A stretch of 64,000 nucleotides of DNA from Thermoplasmata archaeon (lineage in GTDB: Archaea > Thermoplasmatota > Thermoplasmata > RBG-16-68-12 > JAJISG01), in NCBI GenBank assembly GCA_046759185.1, contig JBHIBO010000009.1:194-64193 (forward strand), given 5' to 3'. The notes beneath the pieces were generated by a model. It ran no database searches and had not been told where the DNA came from. It was given only the letters and a program-made list of their open reading frames with translations. Of the stretch, positions 14,307 through 47,289 are shown piece by piece. Positions within the stretch are counted from its first letter, which is position 1; every line of letters begins with the position of its first letter. Position numbers and translations under genes: made by a program.

Positions 14307-14603
14307 CTACGCGGTGAGCCGCTCCGTGATCGCTAGTCGGTCGTAAATCTCCTCCACGGCCCGTCTCGCGTCGGGTTCTTCGCCCCCTTTCACCAGGATG
14401 CGGCCGGTCTTGTAGAGGGTCCGTTCGGGCTTGTCATGAATCAGGAGGAGCACACCGCAGTCCGTGATGCGGTACCCGTCCTGCGCCAGGGCGTCACGGG
14501 CCTCCGCGAGGTTCAGGACAAGGTGCTTCCTGAGCGTGGCCACATAAGCAGCGGTGGTTCGGCAAGGCCGCATCATGAAGTAGCTCATGCGCCCCCTCTT
14601 CAA
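14307..14603 (-). CDS. Small hypothetical protein, possibly TBP-like fold
   Basis: 98-aa ORF. The segment VLLLIHDKPERTLYKTGRILVKGGEEPDARRAVEEIYDRL resembles a TBP half-repeat; weak. Confidence 0.35.
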   Translation of the reverse strand: MKRGRMSYFMMRPCRTTAAYVATLRKHLVLNLAEARDALAQDGYRITDCGVLLLIHDKPERTLYKTGRILVKGGEEPDARRAVEEIYDRLAITERLTA

Positions 14604-14614
14604 TCGGTCGGGGC

Positions 14615-15265
14615 CTATGTAGCTTCCGCCGAAGGGGCGTGAACGAGAGAGACCTCCTCGAGCGTCGCCAGCGACCCCTCCAGGAGCGCATCATAATGCA
14701 TTTTTGCCTCCTCGGCCTCCACAATGTCGAGTCTAGCCCGGGTCGTCGGATGGGCTGGGCCCAGGACGTCGCACACCTCGGGGCCTACGGAGATGGGGTA
14801 GCTTCCGATGCGCTCGGCTTCGTGTACGATGTCCACCTTGTCCCATCCGATGAGGGGTCGCAGGACGGGGAGGTCCACGGCCGCCTCGATGGCGCGCAGG
14901 TTCCAGAGGGTCTGACTCGACACCTGGCCCAGGCTCTCACCGGTGATGAGGGATCCCGCCCCCTCTCGTATCGCGAGCGCCTCAGCGACGCGGAACATGA
15001 GGCGCTTGGAGAGGACGAAGTAGTAGCGCCGGCGACCTCGCCGGGCGATCTCGGCCAGGGCGTCCCCCAAGCGTGCAACGTACAGGGCCGAGAAACCGAG
15101 TCGTGCGGCCAATTTCCGGGACTTCTCCTCGGGAGAGCGGTCGGTGAAGGGTTCCAGCGAACAGTGGAGGGCGGTGACCTCGGTGCCCTGCCTGGTCATG
15201 AGGTGACCGGCTACCGGACTGTCAATGCCACCACTCAGGAGGAGCGTACCCTTCCCTGTTTTCAA
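14615..15265 (-). CDS. PP-loop ATPase, ThiI-like sulfurtransferase domain without N-terminal THUMP/ferredoxin-like domains
   Basis: PP-loop LLSGGIDSPVAGHLM; ThiI motifs LITGESLGQVSSQTLWNL and PLIGWDK; a single Cys in PEVCDV where ThiI has its catalytic Cys; only 216 aa. Confidence 0.7.
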   Translation of the reverse strand: MKTGKGTLLLSGGIDSPVAGHLMTRQGTEVTALHCSLEPFTDRSPEEKSRKLAARLGFSALYVARLGDALAEIARRGRRRYYFVLSKRLMFRVAEALAIREGAGSLITGESLGQVSSQTLWNLRAIEAAVDLPVLRPLIGWDKVDIVHEAERIGSYPISVGPEVCDVLGPAHPTTRARLDIVEAEEAKMHYDALLEGSLATLEEVSLVHAPSAEAT

Positions 15266-15308
15266 CGCTTAACGACTGCGAGAGGCACTTATAACGCTTG
15301 GCGGCGGG

Positions 15309-16307
15309 TCACAGGCCCACGTATCGTCGGTAGAGGGCCTGGGCAACTTCCGGGGACCGAGCGCCCCGGACGAGAGCGCGACCGTCTGGGAAGATGGAGA
15401 GACCGTAAGGTGGGACTTCCAGGGACAGCAGGTACGGTGTCAGACGAACGCGAGCGACGCGGGTGAGGCGGGCCGCGAGCCGTTCCAGGGACACGTCCTC
15501 CTCCCGGCCGGGGTCCACGGAAACGGTGTCTCCGCCGCAGAGCTGAACGACGGTCGGTCCGTTGTGTGGTCTGAGGAATTCCGGGGGGCTCCGCTGGCAT
15601 GCGGGGCACCCGACCCGAGGCGAAATCCTAACGCGTTGGACGTCCGGCTCGCCGTCTCGTAGGACATAGAGGCCCGGGGTTGTTGTTCCCGTCCGGAGGA
15701 AACCAAGTGCATGCGATGCGAGGAGATCCCCCACCCTGGCAGCGACGGGGGCGAGGCCCGTCATACACGGGATGGTCGGCCTTTCAAGCTGGGCTGGGAG
15801 AAGCAGGCATCGAAAGCACGGGGTTTCCGGAGGGTGGAGAGGGCTGGCCATCCCTAAGGCGCCGGCCGCTCCCCCGTAGAGGAAGGGGATGCGGTACTGG
15901 ATGCAAGCCTCGTTGAGAAGGAAGCGGGTCCGGAGGTTGTCCGTTCCGTCTACGACCACGTCGCTGTCCCCGACCAACGGGAGTACGGTTCCCGCGTGAA
16001 CGTCTCGTACCCAAGCTTCGACCCGGGCCTCCGGGTCGAGGGCTCGGAGTCGAGCCTGCGCAGCTATCGCCTTGGGGTCGCCGATGTCTTCCTTTTCGTA
16101 GAATGACGTCCTTTCCAGGTTCCGGCGGTCGACGAGGTCGCGATCGACGAGGACAATCTCCCGGGCTCCTCGTTGCACCAATCGCTCGGCCGCGACAGCC
16201 CCGACCGCTCCGAGCCCGACGACTACCACACGCCCTTTCGTGGGGGTCGGGGACGTGACGTGGTCAGAGGGCCTCGGATGAACCTGTTCGTCCGCCTGTC
16301 CCAACAT
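15309..16307 (-). CDS. ThiF/MoeB/HesA-family E1-like adenylyltransferase with a ~90 aa C-terminal extension
   Basis: Rossmann motif VVVVGLGAVGAVAAERL, plus VDRDLVDRRNLERT and a CxxC...CxxC zinc motif (CFRC...CPAC); 332 aa. Confidence 0.75.
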   Translation of the reverse strand: MLGQADEQVHPRPSDHVTSPTPTKGRVVVVGLGAVGAVAAERLVQRGAREIVLVDRDLVDRRNLERTSFYEKEDIGDPKAIAAQARLRALDPEARVEAWVRDVHAGTVLPLVGDSDVVVDGTDNLRTRFLLNEACIQYRIPFLYGGAAGALGMASPLHPPETPCFRCLLLPAQLERPTIPCMTGLAPVAARVGDLLASHALGFLRTGTTTPGLYVLRDGEPDVQRVRISPRVGCPACQRSPPEFLRPHNGPTVVQLCGGDTVSVDPGREEDVSLERLAARLTRVARVRLTPYLLSLEVPPYGLSIFPDGRALVRGARSPEVAQALYRRYVGL

Positions 16308-18926: not shown

Positions 18927-20162
18927 TCAATCTTTTCGCTTGAGCTGCTGCCCGGCCTCCTCGGCTCTCTGGGTCGCGTCCCGGAGCGGGATGTTCAGGG
19001 CGTCCGCAGCCTCCCGGACGTCCTCAAACTCGGGCTTGATGCTCAGGACCTCTCCCTGGGCACCCCGGGCGACCTTGAACTGGATCTTCGCCCCCTCGAG
19101 GGCGGGCACCTCCAGGGTCCTGGTTTCCCGTTCCAAGACCATGCGTCGTTGGGTCCGGTTTACCCGGACTCCCAGGGTCCCCGTCTCCCGCTGAATCAGA
19201 CCCACGATTCGGTCCTCCTGGCCCGGCGGGCTGAACACTTGGAGGAGGTGACCCGGTCGATTCTTCTTCGTCACCGTCGGAACGAGATGGAAGTCCAGGA
19301 CCCCCGCCGCCGTCAAGCGTTGCGCCAGATGTCCCAGGACCTCCCCCGTCACGTCATCGAGGTTGGTCTCCAGGACAGAGATGACCTCCTCTCCGGGGGG
19401 GCCGGTTCGACCCAGAATGGCGCGGAGGACGTTGGGGACTCCCTCCAGATCACGGCTACCCGCGCCGTACCCGATGGCCTCGGCGCGGATCGTGAAAGTA
19501 GGATCGAAACTGTCCACGAGGGCGGCCAACAGGGCGACCCCCGTGGGCGTCGCCAACGCCCCCATCGTTGATGTCTGATGGAAGGGGATGGCATGCACCG
19601 TCAGGATCTCGGCCACAACCGGGGGTGGGACGGGGAGACGACCATGACGAGTCTCCACGGTTCCGCTTCCCACGGCGACCGGCGTTGAGACGATCTGGGT
19701 CTGCCCGTCCAGGATGTCCAAGTCGTCGAGGAGCAGAGCCGTACCGAGCAAGTCTAGGATGGTGTCCGATGAGCCGAGTTCATGAAGGAGGACCTTCTCG
19801 CCGTCTTCCCCGTGTACGTCGCCCTCCGCATGTACCAGGATGCTCCCGGCCCGAAGCGCCATCTCCAGAGCCTGGTCAGTCAAGGTGAGGCCCGCGGCCA
19901 CCTCTTCAAGGGCTGCGAGAAACGCCGCTCCCGATCTCTCTTCCTCCTTCGACGGAAGGGACCAGTCCATCCACTGCACGCCGAGGCCGCCTCGGTGGAC
20001 GCGTTTGGCCTCCAGGGAAGCCGGCTGCCCCGCGTGTTTGGAGACGGCTACGGCCAGCCCGTCGAGGGGCTCCTGATTCGCTCCCAGGTCCAGCAGGCAA
20101 CCCAGGAGCATGTTCCCGCTGACGCCGGCCAACGACGGGTCCAAGAGGAGCACGCCGGCCAA
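18927..20162 (-). CDS. larC: LarC-family nickel-insertion protein (DUF111)
   Basis: N-terminal LLLDPSLAGVSGNMLLGCLLDLG signature, 411 aa. Confidence 0.8.
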   Translation of the reverse strand: MAGVLLLDPSLAGVSGNMLLGCLLDLGANQEPLDGLAVAVSKHAGQPASLEAKRVHRGGLGVQWMDWSLPSKEEERSGAAFLAALEEVAAGLTLTDQALEMALRAGSILVHAEGDVHGEDGEKVLLHELGSSDTILDLLGTALLLDDLDILDGQTQIVSTPVAVGSGTVETRHGRLPVPPPVVAEILTVHAIPFHQTSTMGALATPTGVALLAALVDSFDPTFTIRAEAIGYGAGSRDLEGVPNVLRAILGRTGPPGEEVISVLETNLDDVTGEVLGHLAQRLTAAGVLDFHLVPTVTKKNRPGHLLQVFSPPGQEDRIVGLIQRETGTLGVRVNRTQRRMVLERETRTLEVPALEGAKIQFKVARGAQGEVLSIKPEFEDVREAADALNIPLRDATQRAEEAGQQLKRKD

Positions 20163-20172
20163 GGAACCACCT

Positions 20173-20448
20173 CTAAGCGATGTAGCGGTCGGCGGAGCCT
20201 TCGTAGTCCCTCAGCGCCACGACGCTCGAAAGCTGTCCGATGATCTCACGTGCGAGGTCTCGGGTAAAAGCATGCTCCGGAATCTCGTCCGTCTCCTGAA
20301 TCCACGTAAGGACCTCCCCCAGTGCCTCCTTCATCTCGTCCGTGGTGAGGTCCTGATCCATGCGGGAGACGGCTTCCTCCGTCCGAAGCATGGCCAAAAC
20401 GAAGTCCTTGCACAGGCCGACGAGGTGCGTGACCTTCTCCGCCGTCAT
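20173..20448 (-). CDS. Hypothetical protein (91 aa, acidic)
   Basis: ORF with ATG start lying between larC and the arsC-like gene on the same strand. Confidence 0.35.
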   Translation of the reverse strand: MTAEKVTHLVGLCKDFVLAMLRTEEAVSRMDQDLTTDEMKEALGEVLTWIQETDEIPEHAFTRDLAREIIGQLSSVVALRDYEGSADRYIA

Positions 20449-20507: not shown

Positions 20508-20903
20508 CTACAGCTCCGCCAGGAGCCCCCGAACGCGCCCCTCAATCTCGTCCCGGAGGCCCCGGGCCTCCTCCTCCCCCATCCCGCCCGGGTCGGGGAG
20601 GGACCATTCCTCGGCGCGGTCGAGGATATTGGCGGGGCAAGCTTCCTCCGGGCTGCACCCCATGGTGACGATTCGGTCGGCCTGGCGTGCGAAGGCCATG
20701 TCCACCTCCTTCGGGACGTGGAGGGAGATATCGATGTTCCGCTCTCCCATGAGGCGCACCGCGACCGGGCTTACTTGCGAGGCGGGCTTCACGCCCCCGC
20801 TACGGACTAGGACCCCACGCGCCGCATGATGACGGGCGAACCCTTCCGCCATCTGGCTTCGGAAGCTGTTACCCACGCAGATGAAGAGGACCCGCTTGAC
20901 CAT
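20508..20903 (-). CDS. Low-molecular-weight phosphotyrosine phosphatase / arsenate reductase (ArsC, LMW-PTP family)
   Basis: CX5R P-loop in VLFICVGNSFRSQMAEGF. Confidence 0.8.
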   Translation of the reverse strand: MVKRVLFICVGNSFRSQMAEGFARHHAARGVLVRSGGVKPASQVSPVAVRLMGERNIDISLHVPKEVDMAFARQADRIVTMGCSPEEACPANILDRAEEWSLPDPGGMGEEEARGLRDEIEGRVRGLLAEL

Positions 20904-20927: not shown

Positions 20928-22391
20928 TCAGTAGCGGGTAAGCGTGGGATCGACCTGCGCTGCCCAAGCATCGATGCCCCCCGCCATGTTCCAGACGCGG
21001 GTGAACCCCAGGTCCCGTAGGAACTGGGTGATGCGTGCGCTGCGGGATCCGGTGTGGCAGTGGACGACGATGTTGTCTGCCGTGCTGAGTTCCCCGACCT
21101 TGTACGGGACCTCCCCCACCGGCATGAGTTTCGCGCCGTCGATGTGAACGATCTGCCACTCGATCGGCTCCCGGACGTCCAGGAGTGTGGCGTCGCCCTT
21201 CTGGACCATCACCGCTGCTTCCTGCACATCGACCTGGAACTCGCTCGCCAGGGCGTTCTCCGCCCCCAGGCCGCAGAAGGCCTCGTAGTCGATCAGCTCC
21301 GTCACCGTTGGGTTCTCCCCGCAGACGGGACAGCCCGGGTCCTTCCGGAGCTTCAGCTCCCGGAAGCTCATCTTCATCGCATCGAAGAGCAGCAGGCGTC
21401 CGACCAGGGTGTCCCCTTTCCCGAGGAGGACCTTCAGTGCCTCGTTGGCTTGGAGACTCCCCACGATCCCTGGCAGGACTCCTAGGACGCCGCCCTCCGC
21501 GCAGCTGGGCACGAGGCCCGGCGGCGGGGGCTCGGGGTAGAGGCACCGGTAGCAGGGACCCTGCGACGCGTCGAAGACGGAGACCTGCCCCTCGAAGCGG
21601 AAGATGCTTCCGTAGATGTTGGGCTTGCCCAGGATGACGCTCACGTCGTTGACGAGGTACCGGGTCGGGAAGTTGTCCGTCCCGTCGATGATGACGTCAT
21701 AGTCTCCCAGGATGTCGAGGGCGTTCTCACTGGTCAGGCGAACCTCGTGGGACTCCACCTGCACCCCGGGGTTGAGCGCTTCTAGCCTCTCCTGGGCCGC
21801 CTTCAGCTTGGGCCGGGCGAGGTCGTTGGTGTTGAAGAGGACCTGACGCTGGAGGTTGCTTTCGTCCACGGCGTCAAAATCCACCAGGCCGAGGCGGCCC
21901 ACGCCCGCGGCGGTGAGGTACATCCCCAGGGGAGCCCCGAGACCGCCTACGCCCACGATCAGGGCGCTGGATCGACGGAGGGTCTCTTGCCCCTCCAGAC
22001 CCACTTCCGGGAGGATCAGGTGTCGGCTGTAGCGCTTAATCTCTTCCTGTGTCAACCCCGCCTGGGGAGGCGGGCGCGGGCCGAGGGTAACGTTGGGGAA
22101 GGCGCCGCCGGCCACGCTGGGCACGATGATGACGGTGTCCCCCTCGGTCACGGAGGTGGCCTCCCGTTCCAGGTAGCGAATGTCCTCCTCGTTCACGTAG
22201 ACGTTCACGAAATTTCGGAGCTTGCCGTTGTCCCCGAGGAGGTACCGTTTGAGGGGTTCGTACTCTACGGCGAGCCCGTCCAAGAGCTCCTGGATCGTCT
22301 CTCCCTCCACGTCCAGGCTGTCTCGGTTCCCCACGTACTGCCGCAACGGCGTGGGAATTCGGATGGTCACGTTCGGCTTACTCATGCGCAC
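20928..22391 (-). CDS. Tri-domain fusion: MoaD/ThiS/CysO-like ubiquitin-like domain (ends ...PSVAGG) + MoeZ/MoeB-type E1 adenylyltransferase + C-terminal rhodanese
   Basis: Residues 1-96 form a beta-grasp Ubl ending in the GG motif typical of MoaD (GDTVIIVPSVAGG). Then comes the E1 domain (HLILPEVGLEGQETL, LIVGVGGLGAP, CxxC...CPVC), then a rhodanese domain with its active-site Cys (VVHCHTGSRSAR). Confidence 0.8.
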   Translation of the reverse strand: MRMSKPNVTIRIPTPLRQYVGNRDSLDVEGETIQELLDGLAVEYEPLKRYLLGDNGKLRNFVNVYVNEEDIRYLEREATSVTEGDTVIIVPSVAGGAFPNVTLGPRPPPQAGLTQEEIKRYSRHLILPEVGLEGQETLRRSSALIVGVGGLGAPLGMYLTAAGVGRLGLVDFDAVDESNLQRQVLFNTNDLARPKLKAAQERLEALNPGVQVESHEVRLTSENALDILGDYDVIIDGTDNFPTRYLVNDVSVILGKPNIYGSIFRFEGQVSVFDASQGPCYRCLYPEPPPPGLVPSCAEGGVLGVLPGIVGSLQANEALKVLLGKGDTLVGRLLLFDAMKMSFRELKLRKDPGCPVCGENPTVTELIDYEAFCGLGAENALASEFQVDVQEAAVMVQKGDATLLDVREPIEWQIVHIDGAKLMPVGEVPYKVGELSTADNIVVHCHTGSRSARITQFLRDLGFTRVWNMAGGIDAWAAQVDPTLTRY

Positions 22392-22824
22392 TCTCTCCTA
22401 CTTTTCCACGACGTTTAAACCTCAAGGGCTCCTCCACCATCTCCTCCTCTTCCCGGCGCCAAGCGGTCACGTCTCCCGACGCCTCTAACGCCGTGGCCAG
22501 GATGAGATAGGTGTACCACGGCCACGCCCGTTCGGTATCGTAGCGGGAGGGGGCGGCGGGGTGGTCGGGGTGGGAGTGATAGAACCCGAGCATGAGGAGG
22601 CCGCGATCGCGGGCCTCCCGATCCGCGTCGACGATGTCCCGAGGATCGATTTCGTAGCGGTCGCGTGTCGTCGCGGCGCGGAGATTGGTGGCCCGCCGGA
22701 TCGCCGTGACCTTGCGAACCTCTCCATCGAGGCCCAGAAGCACGCCGCACACCTCCGAGGGGTAGCCTTCTCGGGCGTGCTCTCGAAGTTCCTGGAGCAA
22801 CCTCTCCTCGAGTTCGAGCATCAA
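22378..22824 (-). CDS. JAMM/MPN+ metalloprotease (Mec+-like)
   Basis: JAMM motif E...HSHPDHPAAPSRYD (HxHx7SxxD) plus an upstream conserved Glu; 148 aa; overlaps the neighbouring genes at both ends. Confidence 0.8.
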   Translation of the reverse strand: MMLELEERLLQELREHAREGYPSEVCGVLLGLDGEVRKVTAIRRATNLRAATTRDRYEIDPRDIVDADREARDRGLLMLGFYHSHPDHPAAPSRYDTERAWPWYTYLILATALEASGDVTAWRREEEEMVEEPLRFKRRGKVGESAHE

Positions 22825-23762
22825 CCCTCCTCCCAGTAGCGTTCCGTCAGGTAGCGGTCGCCTGCGTCAGGAAAGACGGTGACGACAGTCCCCCTTCGGA
22901 GCCCCTTCGCGACTTGCAGTGCGGCGGCGAGGGCCGCACCCGATGAGGTCCCCACGAGAAGGCCTTCCCGCTCGGCCAGAAGGCGGGCGTGCCGCTGGGC
23001 TTCCTCCGTCTCCACGAAGAGGGTGTCGTCCTGAATCGTGGCGTCAAAGATTCCGGGCCGTATGGAGCTCTCCATGTGCTTCAGTCCCTCGATGCCATGG
23101 AGGGGTTCTCCGGGTTGGATACCGAGGATTTGGACCGAGGGGTCGTCTTCCCTGAGGCGTCGCCCGGTGCCCACCAAGGTCCCGCCCGTCCCCACCCCTG
23201 CAACGAAGTGGGTTATCTCGCCCCCCGTCTGATCGAGGATTTCCGGTGCGGTGCCCTCGTAGTGGGCCGCCCAATTCGCCGGGTTGTTGTATTGATCCAC
23301 GTAGAGGTACGCCCCGGGGTCCTCCCGATGGATCCGTGCGGCCACCCGCTGGGCCCCGTCGGTTCCCGCCAACGGGTCCGTCAGGACGAGTTCTGCGCCG
23401 AAGGAGCGCATGATGGTCTGACGGCCCCGACTCGCGTTGGAGGGGAGGACCAGCTTGGTGGGGATGCCCGTCGCGGCGCCGAGCATGGCTAGGGCGATGC
23501 CCGTGTTGCCGGAGGTGGCTTCCAGCAGGGTCATCCCCGCGCGGTAGGCGCCCGAAGCCAGGGCGTCGCGGATCATCCACAGCGCGGGTCGGTCCTTGAC
23601 GCTGCCCCCCGGGTTGAACCACTCGGCCTTGGCACGAAGCGTGACCCCATCCAGATCCCAAGACGCGGCATCCAGTCGGAGGAGCGGCGTGTTTCCAATC
23701 AAGGCTGTGATCGAAGCCTCCTGGAGCCTCCGGCCTGGCGTGCTTCCCACGCTGTCCTGCAT
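22821..23762 (-). CDS. cysM: Cysteine synthase (CysM/CysK family, PLP fold type II)
   Basis: PLP-lysine motif NPGGSVKDRPA, plus TSGNTGIALA and GVGTGGTLVG. Confidence 0.85.
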   Translation of the reverse strand: MQDSVGSTPGRRLQEASITALIGNTPLLRLDAASWDLDGVTLRAKAEWFNPGGSVKDRPALWMIRDALASGAYRAGMTLLEATSGNTGIALAMLGAATGIPTKLVLPSNASRGRQTIMRSFGAELVLTDPLAGTDGAQRVAARIHREDPGAYLYVDQYNNPANWAAHYEGTAPEILDQTGGEITHFVAGVGTGGTLVGTGRRLREDDPSVQILGIQPGEPLHGIEGLKHMESSIRPGIFDATIQDDTLFVETEEAQRHARLLAEREGLLVGTSSGAALAAALQVAKGLRRGTVVTVFPDAGDRYLTERYWEEG

Positions 23763-24137
23763 CTACGTGCCGTCCCCTTGGTAGGCCTTGAGGCCGATGC
23801 GCAGGGTGCTCAGGGAGAGGAGGGCACACTTGAGGCGAGCGTGGCTGATGGGGATGCCGAGGGTCTGCAGGACGGCGTCCTCGTCGATCTCGAGGACCTC
23901 CTTCAGGGTCTTCCCCTTGAGCTTCACGGTGAGCATGGAGGCGGAGGCCTGGCTGATGGCGCACCCTTCTCCCTGGAACTTCACGTCCTCCACGACGGCG
24001 TCGTCATCGAGCTTGAGGTAGAGGGCAATCTCGTCCCCGCACAGGGGGTTGTCCTCCCGGGCCCAGATATCGGCTTCCGCCAGGTCTCCCTTGTTCCGGG
24101 GGTTTTGGTAGTGATCCAGGATGGCCTCCTGATACAT
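23763..24137 (-). CDS. sufU: SufU/IscU-like Fe-S cluster assembly scaffold (NifU N-terminal type)
   Basis: Conserved motifs NPLCGDEIALYL, GEGCAISQASASM and HARLKCALL. Start at the ATG at 24137. The upstream 240 codons of the ORF-track ORF overlap sufS out of frame and are spurious. Confidence 0.8.
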   Translation of the reverse strand: MYQEAILDHYQNPRNKGDLAEADIWAREDNPLCGDEIALYLKLDDDAVVEDVKFQGEGCAISQASASMLTVKLKGKTLKEVLEIDEDAVLQTLGIPISHARLKCALLSLSTLRIGLKAYQGDGT

Positions 24138-24145
24138 CTCGTAGC

Positions 24146-25423
24146 TCACAGCCGGAAGACCTCCTTGACCCTCTCCAAGCCCTCGGCCAAGCGGTCGGCC
24201 TCGTCCCGGGTGTTGTACACGTAGAAGCTTGCTCGGGTGGTAGCGGGCACGTCCAGGCGGTCCATGAGGGGCTGAGCGCAGTGGTGACCGGCCCGGACGG
24301 CGATGCCTTCTGCGTCCAGGATCGAGGCGATGTCGTGGGCATGGACCCCCTCGAGCAGGAACGACAGAACGCCGGCTCGCTCTTTCACGTCGGTGGGGCC
24401 GTAGACGTGCAAGCCGTCGATGGCACCGAGCCGCTCCAAGGCATGTGCGCCGAGGACCATCTCGTGCTCTCGGACCCGGTGCATGTCTAACCCCTGGAGG
24501 TAGTCCACCGCGGCCCCGAGGCCGATGGCCCCCACGATGTTGGGCGTTCCTGCCTCGAACTTCCAAGGCAGGTCGTTCCAGCGGGCCCACCCTAGGTGGA
24601 CTTCCCGGATCATCTCCCCACCCCCCAGGAAGGGCTCCATCTCCTCCAGGACCTCCTCCCGCCCACACAGGGCCCCGATGCCCGTAGGCCCCAGCATCTT
24701 GTGCCCGGAGACGGCAAGGAAGTCGGCATCGATGGCCTGGGCGTCCACGGGCATGTGGGGGGCCGACTGGGCGGCGTCGACGAGGCAGAGGGCGTCGACC
24801 TCGTGGGCCCGCTTGGCGATCTCCGCCACGGGATTGATCGTCCCCAACACGTTGGAGCACTGGGTGACCGTGACGAGCTTGGTCTTCGAGGTAATGAGCT
24901 CGTCGTAGTCCTCCATTTTCAGCGTGCCGTCATCGTGAACATCCACCCACTTGAGGACCACGCCCTTCTGGTCCTGCAGGAAGTACCAGGGGATCGTGTT
25001 GGAGTGGTGCTCCATCACCGTGGAGACGATCTCGTCTCCCTCTTGGAGGCCCCCCTTCATCCCCCAGCCGTAGGCCACGGCGTTGATGGCCTCCGTCGTC
25101 CCGCTGGTGTAGACGACCTCTTCGCGAGCCCGGACGTTGAGGAAGGCCTGGAGCTTGTCCCGGGCGTCCTCGTACTCCTCCGTTGCCCGCTCCCCGAGTT
25201 CGTGGATGGCCCGATGGACGTTGGCCGTGTAGTGGTCCAGGTACTCGTTCATCTTCTCCACCACGGCCCGGGGTTTCTGGGACGTGGCCGCGTTGTCCAA
25301 GTAAACCAGCCGCTTCCCGTGGACCTCCTGGTCCAGAACGGGGAAGTCCTTCCGGACGACTCGTGCGTCCAAAACGCCCTCCTTCACCTTGCCCACCATC
25401 GCTATGCCTCCTCTCGCAACCAA
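24146..25423 (-). CDS. sufS: Cysteine desulfurase SufS (class II aminotransferase fold)
   Basis: Motifs YLDNAATSQKP and SGHKMLGPTGIGAL (PLP-Lys), and a C-terminal catalytic Cys region (RAGHHCAQP); 425 aa. Confidence 0.85.
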   Translation of the reverse strand: MVARGGIAMVGKVKEGVLDARVVRKDFPVLDQEVHGKRLVYLDNAATSQKPRAVVEKMNEYLDHYTANVHRAIHELGERATEEYEDARDKLQAFLNVRAREEVVYTSGTTEAINAVAYGWGMKGGLQEGDEIVSTVMEHHSNTIPWYFLQDQKGVVLKWVDVHDDGTLKMEDYDELITSKTKLVTVTQCSNVLGTINPVAEIAKRAHEVDALCLVDAAQSAPHMPVDAQAIDADFLAVSGHKMLGPTGIGALCGREEVLEEMEPFLGGGEMIREVHLGWARWNDLPWKFEAGTPNIVGAIGLGAAVDYLQGLDMHRVREHEMVLGAHALERLGAIDGLHVYGPTDVKERAGVLSFLLEGVHAHDIASILDAEGIAVRAGHHCAQPLMDRLDVPATTRASFYVYNTRDEADRLAEGLERVKEVFRL

Positions 25424-26145
25424 TCGTACCCTCGTTCCTCCAGCTCGGCCGCCAACTCTCTGCCGCCCGATCGGGCGATACGCCCCTCCATCAAGACGTG
25501 CACTTCCTGGGGGAGGATGTACCGGAGGATGCGCTGATAGTGCGTGATGAGGAGGATCCCCGTACCCTCCCGGGCGAGCCGATTCATCGCGTCGGCGACG
25601 ACCTGGAGGGAGTCGATGTCGAGCCCGGAGTCCGTCTCGTCCATGACGGCCAAGGGAGGACGCAACAGGGCCAACTGAAGGACCTCCGCTCGCTTCTTCT
25701 CGCCCCCGGAGAATCCCTGGTTCACGTACCGGTGGAGAAACGCATCCTCGATCCCCAGATGTTCGAGCTCCTGCCGCACCTGCGCGTCGAACGCCTCCCC
25801 GTTGGACTCCTCGGGCCGCAGGGACCGGTAGGCCTCCCGCAGGAACCGCTTCATCTTGACCCCCGGAAGGTCGGTGGGGTATTGGAAGCCTAGGAACAGG
25901 CCGCGACGGGCCCGTTCGTCTGTGTCCATGGCCAGGAGGTCCTCTCCATCCAGAAGCACTTGGCCGTCGAACACGCGGTATCCAGGATGCCCCAGCAGAA
26001 CGTACGCGAGGGTGGACTTCCCACTCCCGTTGGGCCCCATGAGGGCGTGAACCTCTCCCTGCCGAACCGAGAGGCTGATGCCTCGGAGGATCTGCTTCTC
26101 CTCGATGCCGGCACGGAGGTCTAGGATGTCCAACTGGGCTGGCAT
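25402..26145 (-). CDS. sufC: Fe-S cluster assembly ATPase SufC (copy 1)
   Basis: ABC ATPase with Walker [10 protein letters not shown] and signature [14 protein letters not shown]. Confidence 0.85.
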   Translation of the reverse strand: MPAQLDILDLRAGIEEKQILRGISLSVRQGEVHALMGPNGSGKSTLAYVLLGHPGYRVFDGQVLLDGEDLLAMDTDERARRGLFLGFQYPTDLPGVKMKRFLREAYRSLRPEESNGEAFDAQVRQELEHLGIEDAFLHRYVNQGFSGGEKKRAEVLQLALLRPPLAVMDETDSGLDIDSLQVVADAMNRLAREGTGILLITHYQRILRYILPQEVHVLMEGRIARSGGRELAAELEERGYDWLREEA

Positions 26146-26169
26146 GAACGCTCCCGAACCCTGATTCGC

Positions 26170-26182
26170 ATAACGGCGTTAT
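26170..26182. promoter_or_regulatory. Palindrome ATAACG-G-CGTTAT about 25-35 nt upstream of the sufC (copy 1) start: candidate operator
   Basis: Perfect 6-bp arms flank a single central base. The identical motif, in the same gene-relative orientation, occurs upstream of the divergent sufC copy 2. Confidence 0.5.
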
Positions 26183-26281
26183 CGGTTAAGTACTTCTTCT
26201 CTCCCATGCGGCCCCGAAACAATCGAAAGCCGACTTTAAGGGTTTGTGACAGGTGAGGGGAGGCGACGGTCGCAAGGACTC

Positions 26282-27016
26282 TCACGCTGGGTTGCGCGAG
26301 GCCTCCTTGCCGAGCACTTCAGAACGAATCTGGACGCAGGCCTCGCAGATGGCCTTCTTCCGGTCCGGATCGGAGACGCCTCCTGCGAGGCGCTCCTCCA
26401 AGCCGTCGAGCTGCTCCTCCACGACAGGGTGGCTGCGAAGGGTCGCGTCCTCCCCCCGCCGCCCGCTCATGTATTGGCTTACGGCGGGTTGGCTGACTCC
26501 CAGAAGGGAGGCTACACGTACCTGGCCCCGCTCGGGGACCAGGCGTCGAGCGATCTCGGAGCGAACGAAGGGAAGCAGACGTTCGACCACGAAGGTCTCA
26601 CACGGCTGCTTGGGGAACCCGCCAGGCTCCCCGAGGGCGAGGAGGAATTTGGGTTTCGAGACGCCGCCGAGGATGCACGAGCACGGACCGACGCCCTCCA
26701 TTCTCCGGTAGGAGGTGCATGCCCCACAGATCGCGGCCGTCAGCTTGGGCCCCGACAGGCCGTTCGCGATCCGGGCAGCCAATCGTTCCCCATACTTGCC
26801 CAGTTGTGGGTTTCGCTGTGGGGAGCGCCGGCCGCGCCGCTTCGTGATATAGTGGCTGACCGCCGCCTGGGTGAGCCCCATACGCTCGGCGATATCCCGC
26901 TGGCTCAGCTCGTGCTCGGTAGCGAGGCTCTGGGCGATGCCGGCGCGGAGCGCAGGAAGAAACGCCGGGACGGAGTGCTCACACCATTGGCGCCTACCGA
27001 GGTCGTCCATGTTCAA
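26282..27016 (-). CDS. Putative transcriptional regulator with two HTH domains and conserved cysteine clusters (candidate Fe-S/redox-sensing regulator of the suf locus)
   Basis: Two HTH-like segments (SQRDIAERMGLTQAAVSHYITKRRG and VRVASLLGVSQPAVSQYMSGRRG). Cys clusters CGACTSY...GPCSC and CEAC. Located between the two divergent suf units. Confidence 0.55.
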   Translation of the reverse strand: MNMDDLGRRQWCEHSVPAFLPALRAGIAQSLATEHELSQRDIAERMGLTQAAVSHYITKRRGRRSPQRNPQLGKYGERLAARIANGLSGPKLTAAICGACTSYRRMEGVGPCSCILGGVSKPKFLLALGEPGGFPKQPCETFVVERLLPFVRSEIARRLVPERGQVRVASLLGVSQPAVSQYMSGRRGEDATLRSHPVVEEQLDGLEERLAGGVSDPDRKKAICEACVQIRSEVLGKEASRNPA

Positions 27017-27097
27017 TACGGTGTGATATGGAGGGTGACAGATAAAAAGTTGCGGACCCTTTATCGTCGGCGAGAGCCGGGCTGGTTACGCTTAAAT

Positions 27098-27112
27098 AAT
27101 AACGCCGTTATT
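27098..27112. promoter_or_regulatory. Palindrome AATAACG-C-CGTTATT directly abutting a TTAAATAAT TATA-like element upstream of sufC copy 2: candidate operator
   Basis: Same ATAACG-N-CGTTAT core as at 26170-26182. It sits about 42 nt upstream of the sufC2 ATG and is adjacent to AT-rich TATA-like sequence. Confidence 0.5.
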
Positions 27113-27153
27113 GATTTCATGGGGTCAGGGAGACCATCGAGAGGTCGTCAGGA

Positions 27154-27912
27154 ATGTCGGTGCTCGAAATCAAGAATCTACACGCCGGGGTCGATGGAAA
27201 GGCCATCCTCCACGGCCTCAATCTCACCGTCAGGGCCGGGGAGATTCACGCCCTCATGGGGCCCAACGGCAGCGGCAAATCGACGCTCTCCCATGTCTTG
27301 ATGGGGCACATCCGCTACGAGGTCTACGAGGGCGACGTCCTTCTCGACGGGACATCCATTCTCGGGCTCCTGCCTCACTACCGGGCGCGGCTTGGCCTCT
27401 TCCTCGGGTTCCAATACCCTCAGGAGGTCCCCGGGGTCAAAATGGGGAGCTTCCTGAACGCCGCCTACAAGCGGATGCATCCGGAGGAGGAGATGGAGAT
27501 CCCCGAGTTCTTCGCCTACGTGGGTGAGCGGATGAAACTGCTGAAGCTGGATCCAAGCTTCGGGGCCCGGTACCTGAACGACGGCTTCTCGGGCGGTGAG
27601 AAGAAACGGGCGGAGGTTCTCCAGATGCTCGTCCTCGCGCCTCGAATTGCTGTCCTGGACGAGAGCGACTCGGGCCTGGATATCGACGCGCTCAAGACGG
27701 TAGCCGAAGCCATCGACCACTATGCCGGTCCGGAGGTGGGCATCCTGTTGATTACCCACTATCAACGGCTCCTCGACTACGTGATCCCCGACTTCGTCCA
27801 CGTCCTGGTGGATGGCAAGATCGCCCTCTCAGGGGGCAGCGACCTGGCCCACAAGCTGGAGGAGCTCGGCTACAAGTGGATAAAGGAAGAAACCACTGTG
27901 GAGGTGGTCTAG
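27154..27912 (+). CDS. sufC: Fe-S cluster assembly ATPase SufC (copy 2)
   Basis: Walker [10 protein letters not shown] and signature [14 protein letters not shown]; paralogous to copy 1. Confidence 0.85.
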
Positions 27913-27913
27913 C

Positions 27914-29314
27914 ATGGCCCTGGAGCCCGAGATGGCGAACCGAGAGTACAAATACGGCTTCCGAGACGACATCCAGTACGTTTACCGGACGCCCAAGGGT
28001 CTCAGCGAGGACGTGGTCCGGGAGATCTCCGGGCTGAAGAACGAGCCCGAGTGGATGCTCAAGATGCGCCTTCGCGGCTACAACCACTTCCTGGAGCGGG
28101 TCATGCCCGATTGGGGCGGGGACCTCCACGACATCGACTTCGATGACATCAGCTATTACCTCAAGCCCTCGGAGAAGGAGGGTCGAACCTGGGAGGAGGT
28201 CCCAGAGAAGATTCGGGAGACCTTCGACCGTCTGGGGATTCCGGAGGCCGAGCGCAAGTTCCTGGCCGGGGTGGGGGCCCAATATGACTCCGAGGTGGTC
28301 TACCACAAAACCCTGAAACACCTCGAGGAACAGGGCGTCGTCTTCATGGGCACGGACGCCGCGCTGAAGGAGTACCCCGAGATCTTCCAGGAGTACTTCG
28401 GGACCCTGGTGCCACCGGAGGACAACAAGTTCGCCGCCCTGAACACCGCCGTCTGGAGCGGCGGAAGCTTCGTCTACGTTCCCAAGGGAGTCAAACTGGA
28501 GCAGCCGCTGCAGGCCTACTTCCGCATCAACTCGGAGAACATGGGACAGTTCGAGCGCACCCTCATCGTCGGGGACGAGGACAGCTACTTCCACTACATC
28601 GAGGGCTGCACGGCTCCCACGTACACGACCAACTCTCTCCACGCCGCCGTCGTGGAGGTGATCGCACGACCCGGGGCGAACGTCCGCTACACAACGCTGC
28701 AGAACTGGTCGGACAACGTGTACAACCTGGTCACGAAGCGGGCCTACGCCTACGAGAACAGCACGGTGGAGTGGGTGGACGCCAACATCGGGAGCCGGCT
28801 GACCATGAAGTACCCGTCCGTCTACCTCGTGGGCAAGGGGGCCAAGGCGGAGATCCTGTCCGTGGCCTACGCGGGGAAGGGGATGCACCAGGACGCCGGG
28901 GCCAAGGCCATCCACCTCGCATCCGACACCCAGTCCCGGATCACGAGCAAGTCGGTCTCCCAGAACGGCGGACGGGTGACCTACCGGGGACAGCTGGCCG
29001 TCGCCAAGGGGGCCGAGAACGTGAAATCCAACGTCCGTTGCGACGCCCTCATGCTCGATGCCGTTTCCCGCTCGGACACCTACCCCTACATGGACATCGA
29101 GGAGGAGGACGCCTCCATCACCCACGAGGCGACGGTGGGGAAGATCAGCGAAGACGTGCTCTACTACCTAATGTCCCGGGGCCTCACGGAGAACGAGGCG
29201 ATGAACATGGTGGTCCTGGGCTTCCTGGAGGTCTTCACCAAGGAGCTGCCCATGGAGTACGCTGTGGAGTTTAACCGCCTCATCAAGATGGAGATCGAGG
29301 GAAACGTCGGATAG
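27914..29314 (+). CDS. sufB: Fe-S cluster assembly protein SufB
   Basis: 466-aa SufB/SufD beta-helix family protein with SufB-type N-terminal region; starts 2 nt after the sufC2 stop. Confidence 0.9.
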
Positions 29315-29341
29315 GCCCGGCGCGTCCTTGGGCGAGATTTC

Positions 29342-30649
29342 ATGGAATTCGAACTGGGGTACGCCACCGAGGAGCGGGTCGGCGAGCTCTCCGCAAGACG
29401 CGGTGAGCCGGCCTGGTTACACAAGGATCGGGCCCGGGCGCTGGACGCCTTCCTCGTGATGCCGGTGGAGCCCCTAGCCCTCTTCACGCGTCACACGGAT
29501 CTGCGGGGTGTGGAGGTCGGGAAGGTCACCCCCGTGGAAGACGGGCAGGCGGAAGCGGTCGTACCGGTCTACGATGGCGAGGACAGGGCAGCCTTCGCCC
29601 GCGTGAGCGAGGGCCGACTTCGAGAGGTCCGAATCACCGAGAAACTCCGGGGACGCGACTTCTACCTGAACGAGGCCCTCGGCCTCCTCGAGGAGCGGCC
29701 CAAGGTAGCGAAGAGCCTGCTGGCCCGACCCGATTCCCTGCCCAAGGACGACAAGTTCGGGATGATGAGCCGCGCCCTGTTCTCGACCGCCCTTGTCCTC
29801 TCTGTGCCGCCCCGCGTAGACATCACGCGTCCCATTCACCTCCAGTGGTCGTTTGCGGACCCCGCGTCTGCGCTGCACACCCGTACTCTCATCCACCTCG
29901 GGGCCGGGAGCCGCGTCTCCGTGATCGAGGAGTTCGTCTCGGATGGCGCCGGCGGGGACATGGAGGAACAGAGCCTCTTCGGGAACGCCACAGAGGTGTA
30001 CCTGGAGGAAGGTGCCCGCCTGGACTATGTAGCCATCGAGCGGTTCGCCAACCACGTTGTGTCCTTCTTCACTCGGCAGGCGACCGTCGGTCCCGATGGG
30101 AGCTTCCATCAGGCCTTGGGGAGTTTCGGTGGGTTCCTGACGAAGTCTCGGGCGGACAGCATCCTAGCGGGCCAGGGCTCGCGGATCCGACAGGTGGAGG
30201 TGGTCTACGGCACGGGCCAGGAACGGTACGATAACACGAACTTCGTCACCCACCGGGGCCGTGACTCGGTTAGCGACCTCCTTTCCAAAGCCGTCATGCA
30301 AGAGCGGTCTCGCTCGACACTGAAAGGGGTCATCACCATCGAGGAGGAGGCGGGCAACGCCGACTCCTACTTGGGACAGTACTCCATGCTCCTCAGCCGC
30401 AAGTCCAAGTCCACGGCCATCCCCAGCCTGGAGATCAAGACCAACGATGTCCAGCGTGCTCAACACGCGGCGTCCGTCGCCCAGCTCGATGAGGACCAGG
30501 TCTTCTACCTCATGAGCCGGGGGATCCCCAGGGACTCGGCGCGGCGTATGCTCGTCGAAGGTTTTCTGACGCCCATCGTGGAGACGGTACCTCTCCCCGA
30601 TGCTCGGGCCCAACTGTACGATCTTATCGGCACGAAGTGGGTCGCGTAG
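29342..30649 (+). CDS. sufD: Fe-S cluster assembly protein SufD
   Basis: 435-aa SufB/D-family paralogue downstream of sufB. Confidence 0.8.
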   Translation: MEFELGYATEERVGELSARRGEPAWLHKDRARALDAFLVMPVEPLALFTRHTDLRGVEVGKVTPVEDGQAEAVVPVYDGEDRAAFARVSEGRLREVRITEKLRGRDFYLNEALGLLEERPKVAKSLLARPDSLPKDDKFGMMSRALFSTALVLSVPPRVDITRPIHLQWSFADPASALHTRTLIHLGAGSRVSVIEEFVSDGAGGDMEEQSLFGNATEVYLEEGARLDYVAIERFANHVVSFFTRQATVGPDGSFHQALGSFGGFLTKSRADSILAGQGSRIRQVEVVYGTGQERYDNTNFVTHRGRDSVSDLLSKAVMQERSRSTLKGVITIEEEAGNADSYLGQYSMLLSRKSKSTAIPSLEIKTNDVQRAQHAASVAQLDEDQVFYLMSRGIPRDSARRMLVEGFLTPIVETVPLPDARAQLYDLIGTKWVA

Positions 30650-30650
30650 G

Positions 30651-30962
30651 ATGGCGGACCGGGTCCTCCTCGGCAAGCTCGGTGACTTTGACGAGGGTCG
30701 CATCCACGGCCTCGAGGTCGAGGGACGCCAGCTCATTCTCGTCAACCTCGGAGGGACCCTTCACGTGCTCGACGGAATCTGCACCCACGCCTATGCCGAG
30801 CTCGCCATGGGGTTCCTGACCGGGGAGTATGTGCGCTGTCCTCTGCACCTGTCCCAATTCGACGTGGAGACGGGCGAGGCGATCGGCCCTCCTGCGGAGG
30901 AGCCGCTGCAAACGTACCCCGTGGAGGTAGAGGGCGACTCGGTCTACGTCCTCGTCGGCTGA
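30651..30962 (+). CDS. Rieske [2Fe-2S] ferredoxin-like protein
   Basis: Rieske motifs CTHAYAEL and CPLHLSQF (CxH...CxxH). ATG starts 2 nt after the sufD stop. Confidence 0.75.
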   Translation: MADRVLLGKLGDFDEGRIHGLEVEGRQLILVNLGGTLHVLDGICTHAYAELAMGFLTGEYVRCPLHLSQFDVETGEAIGPPAEEPLQTYPVEVEGDSVYVLVG

Positions 30963-46494: not shown

Positions 46495-47289
46495 TCAGAG
46501 ATTCAGAAACGGCTTCAGTGCGTCCGCCAGGGCCTGGACCTTCTCCTCCAAGGTTCCCGGAATGAACTGCCGCTTCCGTTCCACGGGTTCTCCCTCCACC
46601 AGGTCGTCCACGATGGTGAAGGAGCCCGCCAGTCCCACCTCCTCGTCCCGCAAGCCCAGGTCCGCCGCCGTCCATACCTGCACCCACCCGGACTCGGCTG
46701 CTGCCTCCACCCTGTCGAAGTCGGGGAACCGAGGCTCGTTGGAGCCCACCACCACGGATACGACGGCTGGCATCGGAGCGGCCAGGACCTCGTAGCTGGA
46801 TTCGAGAGCGCGTCGGGCGATGACGGAGTCCCCCTCCACCCGCACGTCGTCCGCAAAGGTGATCTGCGGGACGTCCAACCACTCCGCGAGGCCCGGGGGC
46901 ACCTGCCCTGTGCTGGAATCGGCGGACTCTTCCCCACAGATGACCAGATCGTACTTTCCCAGCTTCTCGACCGCCCGCGCCAGGGTGAGGGAGGTCGGGT
47001 AGGTGTCGGCACCGGCGAAGGCTCGATCGCTCAGCAAGACTGCCCGATCGGCCCCCATGCCCAGACAGAGCTCCAAGTATTCCTTGAACAAGGGCGGTCC
47101 CATGGAGATGAGGGTGACCGTGCCGCCGTAGGCGTCTCTGAGCGCCAAGGCCACCTCCAACGCGTTCTTGTCCGGCGGGTTCAGCACGTTCTCCGCGGCC
47201 GCCCGATCCAGGGTCTTCGTCTCCGGGTTCAGCGTGACCTCCTCGGGCTTGGGGACCACCTTCAGCGAGACGACGATGTGCATGCTCAT
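46495..47289 (-). CDS. etfB: Electron transfer flavoprotein beta subunit
   Basis: EtfB N-terminus MHIVVSLKVVPKPEEV; 264 aa. Confidence 0.85.
   Translation of the reverse strand: MSMHIVVSLKVVPKPEEVTLNPETKTLDRAAAENVLNPPDKNALEVALALRDAYGGTVTLISMGPPLFKEYLELCLGMGADRAVLLSDRAFAGADTYPTSLTLARAVEKLGKYDLVICGEESADSSTGQVPPGLAEWLDVPQITFADDVRVEGDSVIARRALESSYEVLAAPMPAVVSVVVGSNEPRFPDFDRVEAAAESGWVQVWTAADLGLRDEEVGLAGSFTIVDDLVEGEPVERKRQFIPGTLEEKVQALADALKPFLNL

Follow-up and report, generated by a model that had tools for sequence, protein, structure and literature searches.

A putative CysO-type cysteine module with the sulfur carrier fused to its activating enzyme, adjoining suf genes in a Thermoplasmata archaeon

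A three-gene sulfur-carrier module

The 64,000-nucleotide stretch of contig JBHIBO010000009.1 from an uncultured Thermoplasmata archaeon (in what follows, the window) carries on its minus strand, at 20928-23762, three tightly packed and overlapping genes in the order PALP, JAMM, and ThiS-ThiF-Rhodanese fusion. We think it probable that they form a sulfur-carrier module for cysteine synthesis of the CysO/CysM/Mec+/MoeZ kind, bacterial in type and laterally acquired, which closes a suf operon. What we observed directly are gene order, domains, motifs, conservation, and co-occurrence; every step of the chemistry proposed below is borrowed from the mycobacterial system. An initial annotation, made from the sequence alone, had recognized the gene set of the Mycobacterium tuberculosis mec-cysO-cysM and moeZ system in an archaeal context. 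The domains, the alignment with CysO, and the synteny of CysM, JAB, and ubiquitin-like (Ubl) genes support the first part of this statement, and the window also encodes eIF-1A, RIO1, Csl4, Nop5, and an aIF-2B family protein, in keeping with the second.

The three genes are co-directional and overlap, with the open reading frames (ORFs) and reading frames described in that annotation, and the same set was obtained when genes were called independently on the identical Logan contig L001. The cysM stop codon overlaps the JAMM start by 1 nt (TGATG), and the JAMM stop overlaps the ATG of the fusion gene by 8 nt (ATGAGTAA). We started both downstream genes at ATG, giving products of 147 and 485 amino acids (aa); the 148- and 487-aa forms reported earlier begin at a TTG one codon upstream and at a GTG at 22391, respectively. 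Residue numbers refer to the 485-aa form, in which the carrier glycines are GG93-94 (95-96 in the earlier numbering), while the extent of the Pfam ThiS match, residues 10-96, is quoted for the 487-aa form. The Pfam searches that had been suggested for MoaD/ThiS, ThiF, Rhodanese, JAB, and PALP all gave matches above the gathering thresholds.

The N-terminal domain of the fusion protein matched PF02597 (ThiS) with 51.5 bits against a cutoff of 22.5. Its best solved relative is CysO of M. tuberculosis (3DWG_C; 69 bits, E = 2e-18), to which it aligned from end to end, so that PSVAGG sits on the C-terminal PAVAGG of CysO and the two glycines coincide with the CysO C-terminus. A CysO homolog from Amycolatopsis (4N6E_B) scored 64 bits, and MoaD and SAMP1 proteins reached only 25-34 bits, about 35 bits below CysO. 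The proposal of a MoaD/CysO-like beta-grasp domain ending in GG, made as one polypeptide with its activator, is therefore well founded, with the ThiS, ThiF, and Rhodanese matches all located in a single ORF.

In the fusion protein, GG93-94 is internal, with a linker and the adenylyltransferase (E1) after it, so the protein lacks the free C-terminal Gly-Gly that characterizes CysO-type carriers. PS[IV]AGG was kept in 118 of 118 full-length fused homologs, and the GG was invariant. In the same set, the residue right after GG was small (S, A, N, G, V, or T), the distance from GG to (R/K)YSRH was mostly 22 aa, and the sequence in between varied freely. An AlphaFold2 model, run with a 52-sequence alignment and used for its confidence and secondary structure, gave the Ubl domain predicted local distance difference test (pLDDT) values of 80-93, with residues 90-108 below 50. 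The closest free-standing carriers are bacterial; they are 55-68% identical to the Ubl domain and have the same IVPSIAGG end. Most free-standing carriers (in the set of proteins P0241-P0360) continue for 1-5 residues beyond GG, as in GG-SDGD, GG-RRGL, GG-RS, and GG-R.

Adenylation requires a free glycine carboxylate, a point made in the literature for MoaD fusions (PMC3227635; 2024 mSystems fusion survey). The tails of the free-standing carriers thus imply obligatory C-terminal trimming across many bacterial phyla, and, together with the need for a free glycine, they make proteolytic maturation look like a rule of the family, of which the fusion is the extreme form. Judging from these alignments, a pro-carrier design with proteolytic maturation as the norm appears to be family-wide, which we count among the less expected points.

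The JAMM protein (Prok-JAB, PF14464) has E23 and HSHPDHPAAPSRYD, with the motif H82-S-H84-x7-S92-x2-D95, and all metal and catalytic residues are present. The JAMM/MPN+ assignment by HxHx7SxxD was borne out, as the metal-binding residues were all kept in an alignment. Its best match in the PDB was 2KCQ from Salinibacter (E = 3e-24). In Salinibacter/Salinivenus loci, the JAB ORF that separates cysM from the Ubl gene shares 76-82% identity with 2KCQ; this solved structure therefore represents the cysM-JAB-Ubl operon type. We predict that the JAMM protein cleaves behind the carrier's GG94 and also hydrolyzes carrier-Cys. The cleavage site would fall at the N-terminal edge of the linker, between the GG and the following alanine. 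The conserved PS[IV]AGG, the variable and disordered linker, and the tailed free-standing relatives make it very probable that the enzyme trims the carrier besides releasing cysteine. A single JAMM could plausibly do both jobs, because the carrier-GG-Cys adduct, which is the Mec+ substrate in M. tuberculosis, and GG-Ala95 are both alpha-peptide bonds. In the 64-kb window, we found no second Ubl, JAMM, or rhodanese beyond the cluster's own.

The E1 domain matched PF00899 (ThiF) with 275 bits and the ThiF, MoeB, and Uba4 entries of the PDB with E = 1e-56 to 1e-59. It contains a GVGGLG nucleotide loop, a tetracysteine zinc site composed of C278xxC281 (CYRC) and C352xxC355 (CPVC), and C295 in an SCAEGG loop. 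The rhodanese domain (PF00581, 66 bits) has the active-site loop C443HTGSRS. The catalytic and zinc residues of the E1 were invariant among 52 homologs, as were C443, G446, R448, and S449 of the rhodanese. With both Pfam domains and their catalytic residues intact, the earlier description of a MoeZ-type adenylyltransferase followed by a rhodanese stands; by curated family, the fusion protein exceeded the cutoff for MoeB (NF006444; 458.5 against 449). The rhodanese is predicted to be the persulfide carrier that turns the acyl-adenylate of the carrier into a thiocarboxylate.

The first gene of the module encodes a pyridoxal phosphate (PLP)-dependent enzyme with the PLP lysine in S54-V-K56-D-R, a TSGNTG loop, and the subfamily motif E-G-L-K228-H. 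The enzyme is without the loop insertion of about 13 residues found in CysK, as are both CysM references, and it scored 373.1 bits on TIGR01138 (cysM), a near miss of the 394.2 cutoff. In a neighbor-joining (NJ) tree, its clade lay beside the CysM proteins of E. coli and M. tuberculosis and apart from the CysK pair (100% bootstrap), with weak deep nodes. Support for deep nodes was low (42% for E. coli plus M. tuberculosis CysM), and rooting distorted the figure obtained for the JAB-linked clade; the reference sequences were checked to be 100% identical to PDB chains. Given the weak deep bootstraps, the call of CysM-type rather than CysK-type, on which we agree with the initial annotation, is drawn from synteny and from the signature indels and motifs instead of the tree. 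By its motifs, the enzyme is CysM-type, though not a strict M. tuberculosis-type CysM.

We propose the following route from these components. The 485-aa protein would be made as an inactive pro-protein, comprising the CysO-like Ubl, the GG, a disordered linker of about 16 aa, the E1, and the rhodanese. The co-translated JAMM would cut after Gly94 and so free the C-terminal glycine of the carrier, which the released E1 domain would adenylate with ATP. By homology to MoeZR and Uba4, and with the catalytic residues all present, the persulfide of rhodanese Cys443 would turn the adenylate into a thiocarboxylate. The CysM-type enzyme would make aminoacrylate from O-phosphoserine or O-acetylserine; the carrier thiocarboxylate would attack it, and an S-to-N acyl shift would give carrier-Gly-Gly-Cys. 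The same JAMM would then hydrolyze the carrier-Cys peptide bond, which has the geometry of the fusion junction, yielding cysteine and the regenerated carrier. The pathway chemistry and the role of MoeZR are established for M. tuberculosis (PMC3227635).

Table 1. Features of the module and its immediate neighbors, in coordinates of the window
Feature	Coordinates	Strand	Details
CysM-type PLP-dependent cysteine synthase	22821..23762	-	313 aa; Pfam PALP 246 bits
JAMM/MPN+ metalloprotease, Mec+ counterpart	22378..22821	-	147 aa from ATG; Pfam Prok-JAB 91 bits
ThiS/MoaD-ThiF-rhodanese fusion gene	20928..22385	-	485 aa from ATG; ThiS, ThiF, and Rhodanese Pfam matches
CysO-like beta-grasp sulfur-carrier domain	22104..22385	-	fusion aa 1-94, end ...IVPSVAGG94; Pfam ThiS
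Linker, AFPNVTLGPRPPPQAG	22056..22103	-	fusion aa 95-110; variable sequence, predicted disordered
MoeB/MoeZ-type E1 adenylyltransferase domain	21312..22055	-	fusion aa 111-358; Pfam ThiF
Rhodanese domain, C-terminal	20958..21227	-	fusion aa 387-476; Pfam Rhodanese
sufU	23763..24149	-	128 aa; TIGR01994 SufU 116 bits vs 92.5 cutoff
sufS cysteine desulfurase	24146..25423	-	425 aa; Aminotran_5 496 bits; TIGR01979 579 vs 475 cutoff
sufC paralog, first gene of co-directional run	25402..26145	-	247 aa; TIGR01978 319 bits vs 213 cutoff
LMW-PTP/ArsC-like protein	20508..20903	-	131 aa; Pfam LMWPc 70 bits; C9-x5-R + C83 + C89

Distribution and competing assignments

The ThiS-ThiF-Rhodanese architecture is common, occurring in more than 118 clusters at 63% identity or higher, several of them labeled as Thermoplasmata. 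We scanned one genome per species and analyzed the resulting 80 loci by stop-to-stop ORFs. The Ubl was fused to the E1 in one ORF in 34 loci and separate, just upstream, in 21, and the remaining 25 had no Ubl. For co-occurrence, a locus was counted if 2 kb or more of its upstream sequence was available. A CysM gene lay upstream in 35 of the 46 loci bearing a fused or separate Ubl and in none of the 21 without one (Fisher p = 1e-9), and a JAB gene was upstream in 39 of the 46, or in 25 of 29 when only fused loci are counted. Conservation of a JAMM/E1 neighborhood around the PALP gene had been put forward as a test of the assignment, and we found this neighborhood to be strongly conserved in archaea and bacteria alike.

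The fusion as a single ORF occurs in Acidobacteriota, Gemmatimonadota, Chloroflexota, Spirochaetota, Ignavibacteria, Elusimicrobia, Verrucomicrobia, and Negativicutes, in addition to archaea; the bacterial phyla that have it number at least nine. The initial annotation had spoken of an archaeal-context version of the mycobacterial pathway; the host is indeed archaeal, but the system is not specific to archaea, the fusion being common in bacteria. The nearest non-archaeal CysM homologs, at about 60% identity, belong to operons of the type PALP-JAB-ThiS-ThiF/Rhd (Acidobacteria, L007) or PALP-JAB-ThiF/Rhd (L009). An NJ tree of the E1-Rhd region placed the archaeal proteins in one clade, sister to fused Acidobacteria, with fused and separate Ubl states interspersed among the bacteria. 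This pattern suggests that fusion or fission happened repeatedly and that an already fused gene was transferred once into archaea.

Two other origins for the fusion were considered and rejected. An archaeal-specific invention does not agree with the presence of the same single-ORF fusion in many bacterial groups, and an assembly or frameshift artifact does not agree with the 118 independent full-length clusters that keep the fusion architecture.

The interspersed states also bear on whether the Ubl is released at all. It might instead stay attached for good, with a docking or regulatory function, much as in those ThiF fusions whose Ubl is not the carrier, and the true carrier would be encoded elsewhere; Campylobacter-type thiamine operons, in which a Ubl-ThiF with a presumed non-carrier Ubl accompanies a solo ThiS (PMC1779556), offer a precedent. 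We regard this as highly unlikely here. The internal GG has stayed invariant in all 118 fused homologs, the domain is orthologous to free-standing carriers that occupy the same gene position in unfused operons, and a JAMM gene accompanies most of the fused loci counted above. Neither the operon nor the window contains a solo Ubl that could take over the role of carrier.

The module could also be a general Ubl sulfur-carrier or SAMP-like system, serving molybdopterin synthesis, tRNA thiolation, or conjugation, in which case CysM would be an ordinary O-acetylserine sulfhydrylase B that uses sulfide or thiosulfate and is merely co-located. Public annotations name the fusion protein MoeB or SAMP1 (ubiquitin-like small modifier protein 1) and the JAMM protein a desampylase, and the NCBIfam models for UbaA, SAMP1, and desampylase gave sub-threshold scores of 339, 50, and 102 against cutoffs of 450, 60, and 130. 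The mSystems 2024 survey lists the MoaD-MoeBR fusion under molybdenum cofactor (Moco) biosynthesis, mycobacterial MoeZR serves both MoaD and CysO, and the closest solved structure to the PLP enzyme is E. coli CysM. Such a system would, however, leave unexplained why an upstream CysM is so closely tied to the Ubl (35 of 46 loci with it, 0 of 21 without), and the Ubl itself scores about 35 bits better against CysO than against MoaD or SAMP1. In the loci inspected, no moaA/C/E, ncsA, or ttuA-type genes adjoin the module. In L003, a separate ThiS gene stands beside an AOR gene and would meet the demand for tungsten/molybdenum cofactor, and the window contains a second E1 next to ThiI. On balance, we judge a general or SAMP-like carrier system unlikely. 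A search of the window for Moco genes found none.

The second E1 belongs to a gene pair at 14615-16307 on the minus strand, where a 332-aa ThiF-family E1 (NF009123-like, without a rhodanese) is directly upstream of a ThiI PP-loop protein. The ThiI ORF comprises 216 aa from a TTG start; the gene call on the identical public contig made it 194 aa long. L001 and L004 keep this pair, which lacks a neighboring Ubl gene and may serve a sulfur transfer of its own, e.g. for tRNA 4-thiouridine (s4U) or thiamine.

Several observations weigh against the CysO/CysM/Mec+/MoeZ-type assignment that we favor. An adjacent CysM was scored absent in 7 of the 29 fused loci with enough upstream DNA, although at least one of these cases (L028) is a detection artifact. 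Within the enzyme, Lys228 occupies the column of M. tuberculosis Arg220 and E. coli Arg210, the former of which we take to be the phosphate-binding residue of M. tuberculosis CysM. The lysine of EGLKH was invariant in 120 of the 120 nearest CysM homologs and retains the positive charge of the arginine. The tail after WKYL is 9 aa long here and 7-14 aa in nearly all homologs, compared with 22 aa in M. tuberculosis. In the sequences compared, the invariant EGLKH motif, with Lys in place of M. tuberculosis Arg220, and the missing M. tuberculosis C-terminal tail are among the less expected points of this analysis. Of the solved structures, E. coli CysM was the best match (237 bits) and thus closer than M. 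tuberculosis CysM (184 bits), with CysK and CBS proteins at about 180-225 bits; E. coli CysM uses sulfide or thiosulfate.

The family models and the genomic surroundings add to these points. The fusion protein scored 476.8 on the MoeZ model NF005902, well below its cutoff of 647, and across the four components the NCBIfam cutoffs for CysM, MoeZ, SAMP1, and desampylase were all missed, so that no existing curated family name applies. MoeZR serves MoaD proteins as well as CysO in mycobacteria (PMC3227635), which means that the E1 here may have other clients. A search of the 64-kb window for cysE, serB/serC, and genes of sulfate assimilation or sulfate/sulfite reduction found none.

Linkage to suf genes and other features of the window

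The sufU stop codon abuts the cysM ATG, and the GTG start of sufU in turn overlaps the sufS stop. The module had been described as lying immediately downstream of sufS-sufU-sufC; it does sit directly behind suf genes, but their real order is sufC-sufS-sufU. The order sufS-sufU-PALP-JAB-fusion was found in all nine distinct archaeal loci examined (window, L003, L004, L005, L011-L014), of which L012 covers only the end of sufU, while the identity of the fusion protein to that of the window falls to 64% across archaeal loci. This invariant suf linkage in the archaeal lineage is a less expected point. Bacterial versions of the module are usually without a suf neighbor, which indicates that its core function is independent of Suf.

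As a side observation, SufS-like genes occur within 6 kb of cysM-JAB-Ubl-E1, but not adjoining it, in L081 (Chloroflexus sp.), L049, and L053; L081 has a SufU-like gene as well.

For M. tuberculosis itself, Voss et al. (PMC3227635) describe the physiological sulfur donor of CysO as unknown and consider thiosulfate an improbable one. The conserved suf linkage offers a concrete candidate for the sulfur donor of CysO-type carriers. One possible consequence is that SufS-SufU loads the rhodanese and that the CysM-like enzyme makes a sulfur compound other than cysteine (e.g. a specialized thiol), or that the thiocarboxylate relays sulfur to iron-sulfur (Fe-S) assembly. The position of sufS-sufU directly upstream in every archaeal locus, the gap in knowledge on the CysO donor, and an EGLKH motif unlike both characterized CysM types all speak for such a role. 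Even so, it strikes us as quite unlikely, since the bacterial module generally does without any suf neighbor, no signature of a cysteine synthase is missing from the PLP enzyme, which scored 373 bits on the cysM model, and the cluster has no conserved extra tailoring enzymes. A related idea, which we hold to be similarly doubtful, is that the Thermoplasmata module is integral to Suf: JAMM cleavage would be a switch for thiocarboxylate chemistry, SufS-SufU would be the persulfide donor of the rhodanese, and the Lys-type (EGLKH) CysM subfamily would be specialized for thiocarboxylate. If true, this would answer, for the Thermoplasmata lineage, where the sulfur of CysO comes from.

Returning to the cysteine module, the suf placement had been thought to link sulfur mobilization to cysteine formation. 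The placement itself is conserved in the archaeal loci, but SufS consumes cysteine, so that a SufS donor yields no net cysteine; as a net sulfur source for cysteine, this route is chemically circular, and we ranked it low. The linkage is best read as co-regulation, in which an oxidation-tolerant cysteine supply is co-expressed with the cysteine-consuming Suf Fe-S machinery.

The region has two sufC paralogs. The one at 25402-26145 on the minus strand heads the sufS-sufU-cysM run, and the other, at 27154-27912 on the plus strand, heads a divergent sufC-sufB-sufD-Rieske run (the span of both being 25402-30962). Between them, at 26282-27016 on the minus strand, lies a gene for a 244-aa protein with two helix-turn-helix regions, a layout repeated in L004. 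This protein is a candidate regulator of both suf operons.

At the other end, the LMW-PTP/ArsC-like gene begins 24 nt 3' of the fusion gene and is possibly the last gene of the operon. It occupies the same place in L004, and other genes are found there in L003 and L005. The protein did not reach the ArsC cutoffs of NCBIfam; its part in the operon may have to do with thiols or persulfides. A LarC-type nickel insertion protein of 411 aa is encoded shortly beyond the sulfur cluster, on its downstream side, at 18927-20162 (minus strand); it is present in L001 but not at this position in L004. Small conserved ORFs of 91 and 98 aa without a Pfam match, at 20173-20448 and 14307-14603 (both on the minus strand), have the same positions in L001 and L004.

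Two further features of the window lie outside the sulfur region, both on the minus strand. A 694-aa ORF at 10-2094 has Mur ligase middle and C-terminal domains together with a C-terminal HhH-GPD base-excision glycosylase domain, which is an unusual pairing. A co-directional cluster at 46495-52836 encodes a 1,129-aa HdrA-like flavoprotein in which two modules of the pyridine-nucleotide-disulfide oxidoreductase type are combined with ferredoxin domains and a C-terminal MvhD/FlpD domain, followed by an HdrC/B-like Fer4+CCG protein and by the alpha and beta subunits of ETF. The composition resembles that of an electron-bifurcating Hdr-ETF complex, here in a non-methanogen.

Comparison with known systems

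The module is best seen as a known type of pathway in a version whose carrier is fused. It is widespread, and there are precedents for each of its elements (pathway, operon type, fusion, and JAMM trimming), so that no major concept is changed by it. Our literature search found no paper that combines CysO/CysM/Mec with Thermoplasmata. If the assignment is correct, hundreds of archaeal and bacterial "MoeB" or "SAMP1" annotations would become the CysO-MoeZ pro-protein of a thiocarboxylate-dependent cysteine pathway, and metabolic reconstructions would shift for abundant uncultured Thermoplasmata, Acidobacteriota, Gemmatimonadota, and others. The module would also be an uncomplicated prokaryotic example in which a ubiquitin-like protein is synthesized as part of a fusion and set free by a JAMM protease, with one protease predicted both to mature the carrier and to free the product.

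The operon type was described by Iyer, Burroughs and Aravind (2006), whose Table 1, row 4c, lists an uncharacterized operon of ThiS/MoaD, E1-rhodanese, JAB, and cysteine synthase in several bacteria, along with an actinobacterial ClpS variant and other Ubl-ThiF fusions (PMC1779556). The bacterial row 4c operons (Salinibacter, Chloroflexus, Solibacter) have the same content and order, cysM-JAB-Ubl-E1/Rhd, with proteins 50-60% identical to those described here. They differ in that the Ubl and E1 form one ORF here (as they do in many bacteria too), the module resides in an archaeon, and sufS-sufU stands ahead of it. Unlike the actinobacterial operon type, the module has no ClpS or helical-protein neighbor.

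For archaea, Makarova and Koonin (2010) reported that Thaumarchaeota have Ubl-E1 fusions and that Thermoplasma has E1 enzymes of bacterial type. In 2024, a survey of fusions in archaea (mSystems) found MoaD-MoeBR mainly in unclassified Euryarchaeota and Poseidoniales and suggested transfer from Acidobacteria. The SAMP1/UbaA/HvJAMM1 system of Haloferax is another archaeal combination of Ubl, E1, and JAMM proteins, with weak profile matches to the present proteins, all three below the NCBIfam cutoffs. The E1 here has a rhodanese, which is absent from the 270-position UbaA model, and the components are of bacterial descent with a genomic link to CysM.

Cleavage of carrier fusions also has precedents. 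JAMM cleavage of a MoaD-MoaE fusion is documented in work cited by PMC11237513 and PMC8832034, according to the passages that cite it, and the need for cleavage of M. tuberculosis MoaX is documented in the literature. In the MoaD-MoaE fusions cut by DR0402 and in MoaX, the carrier has residues past GG and is cleaved before adenylation, as proposed here. Pro-carriers trimmed by JAMM proteases are known from thioquinolobactin synthesis (QbsE/QbsD) and Wolinella methionine synthesis (HcyS/HcyD). Compared with these trimmed pro-carriers, the tail here is the whole activating enzyme, of about 390 aa, rather than 1-2 residues or a downstream synthase subunit, and the protease is also predicted to release the product.

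A close counterpart is the CysO-CysM-Mec+ system of M. tuberculosis (Rv1335-Rv1336-Rv1334) with MoeZR (Rv3206c), which comprises the same four activities (GG carrier, CysM-type PLP enzyme, JAMM protease, and E1 with rhodanese). In the archaeal module, the carrier is fused to the E1 and the moeZ equivalent is inside the operon, whereas M. tuberculosis moeZ is unlinked. The archaeal carrier would need proteolytic release, and the module is attached to sufS-sufU. Its CysM has Lys228 in place of Arg220 and does without the 22-aa C-terminal tail of the mycobacterial enzyme.

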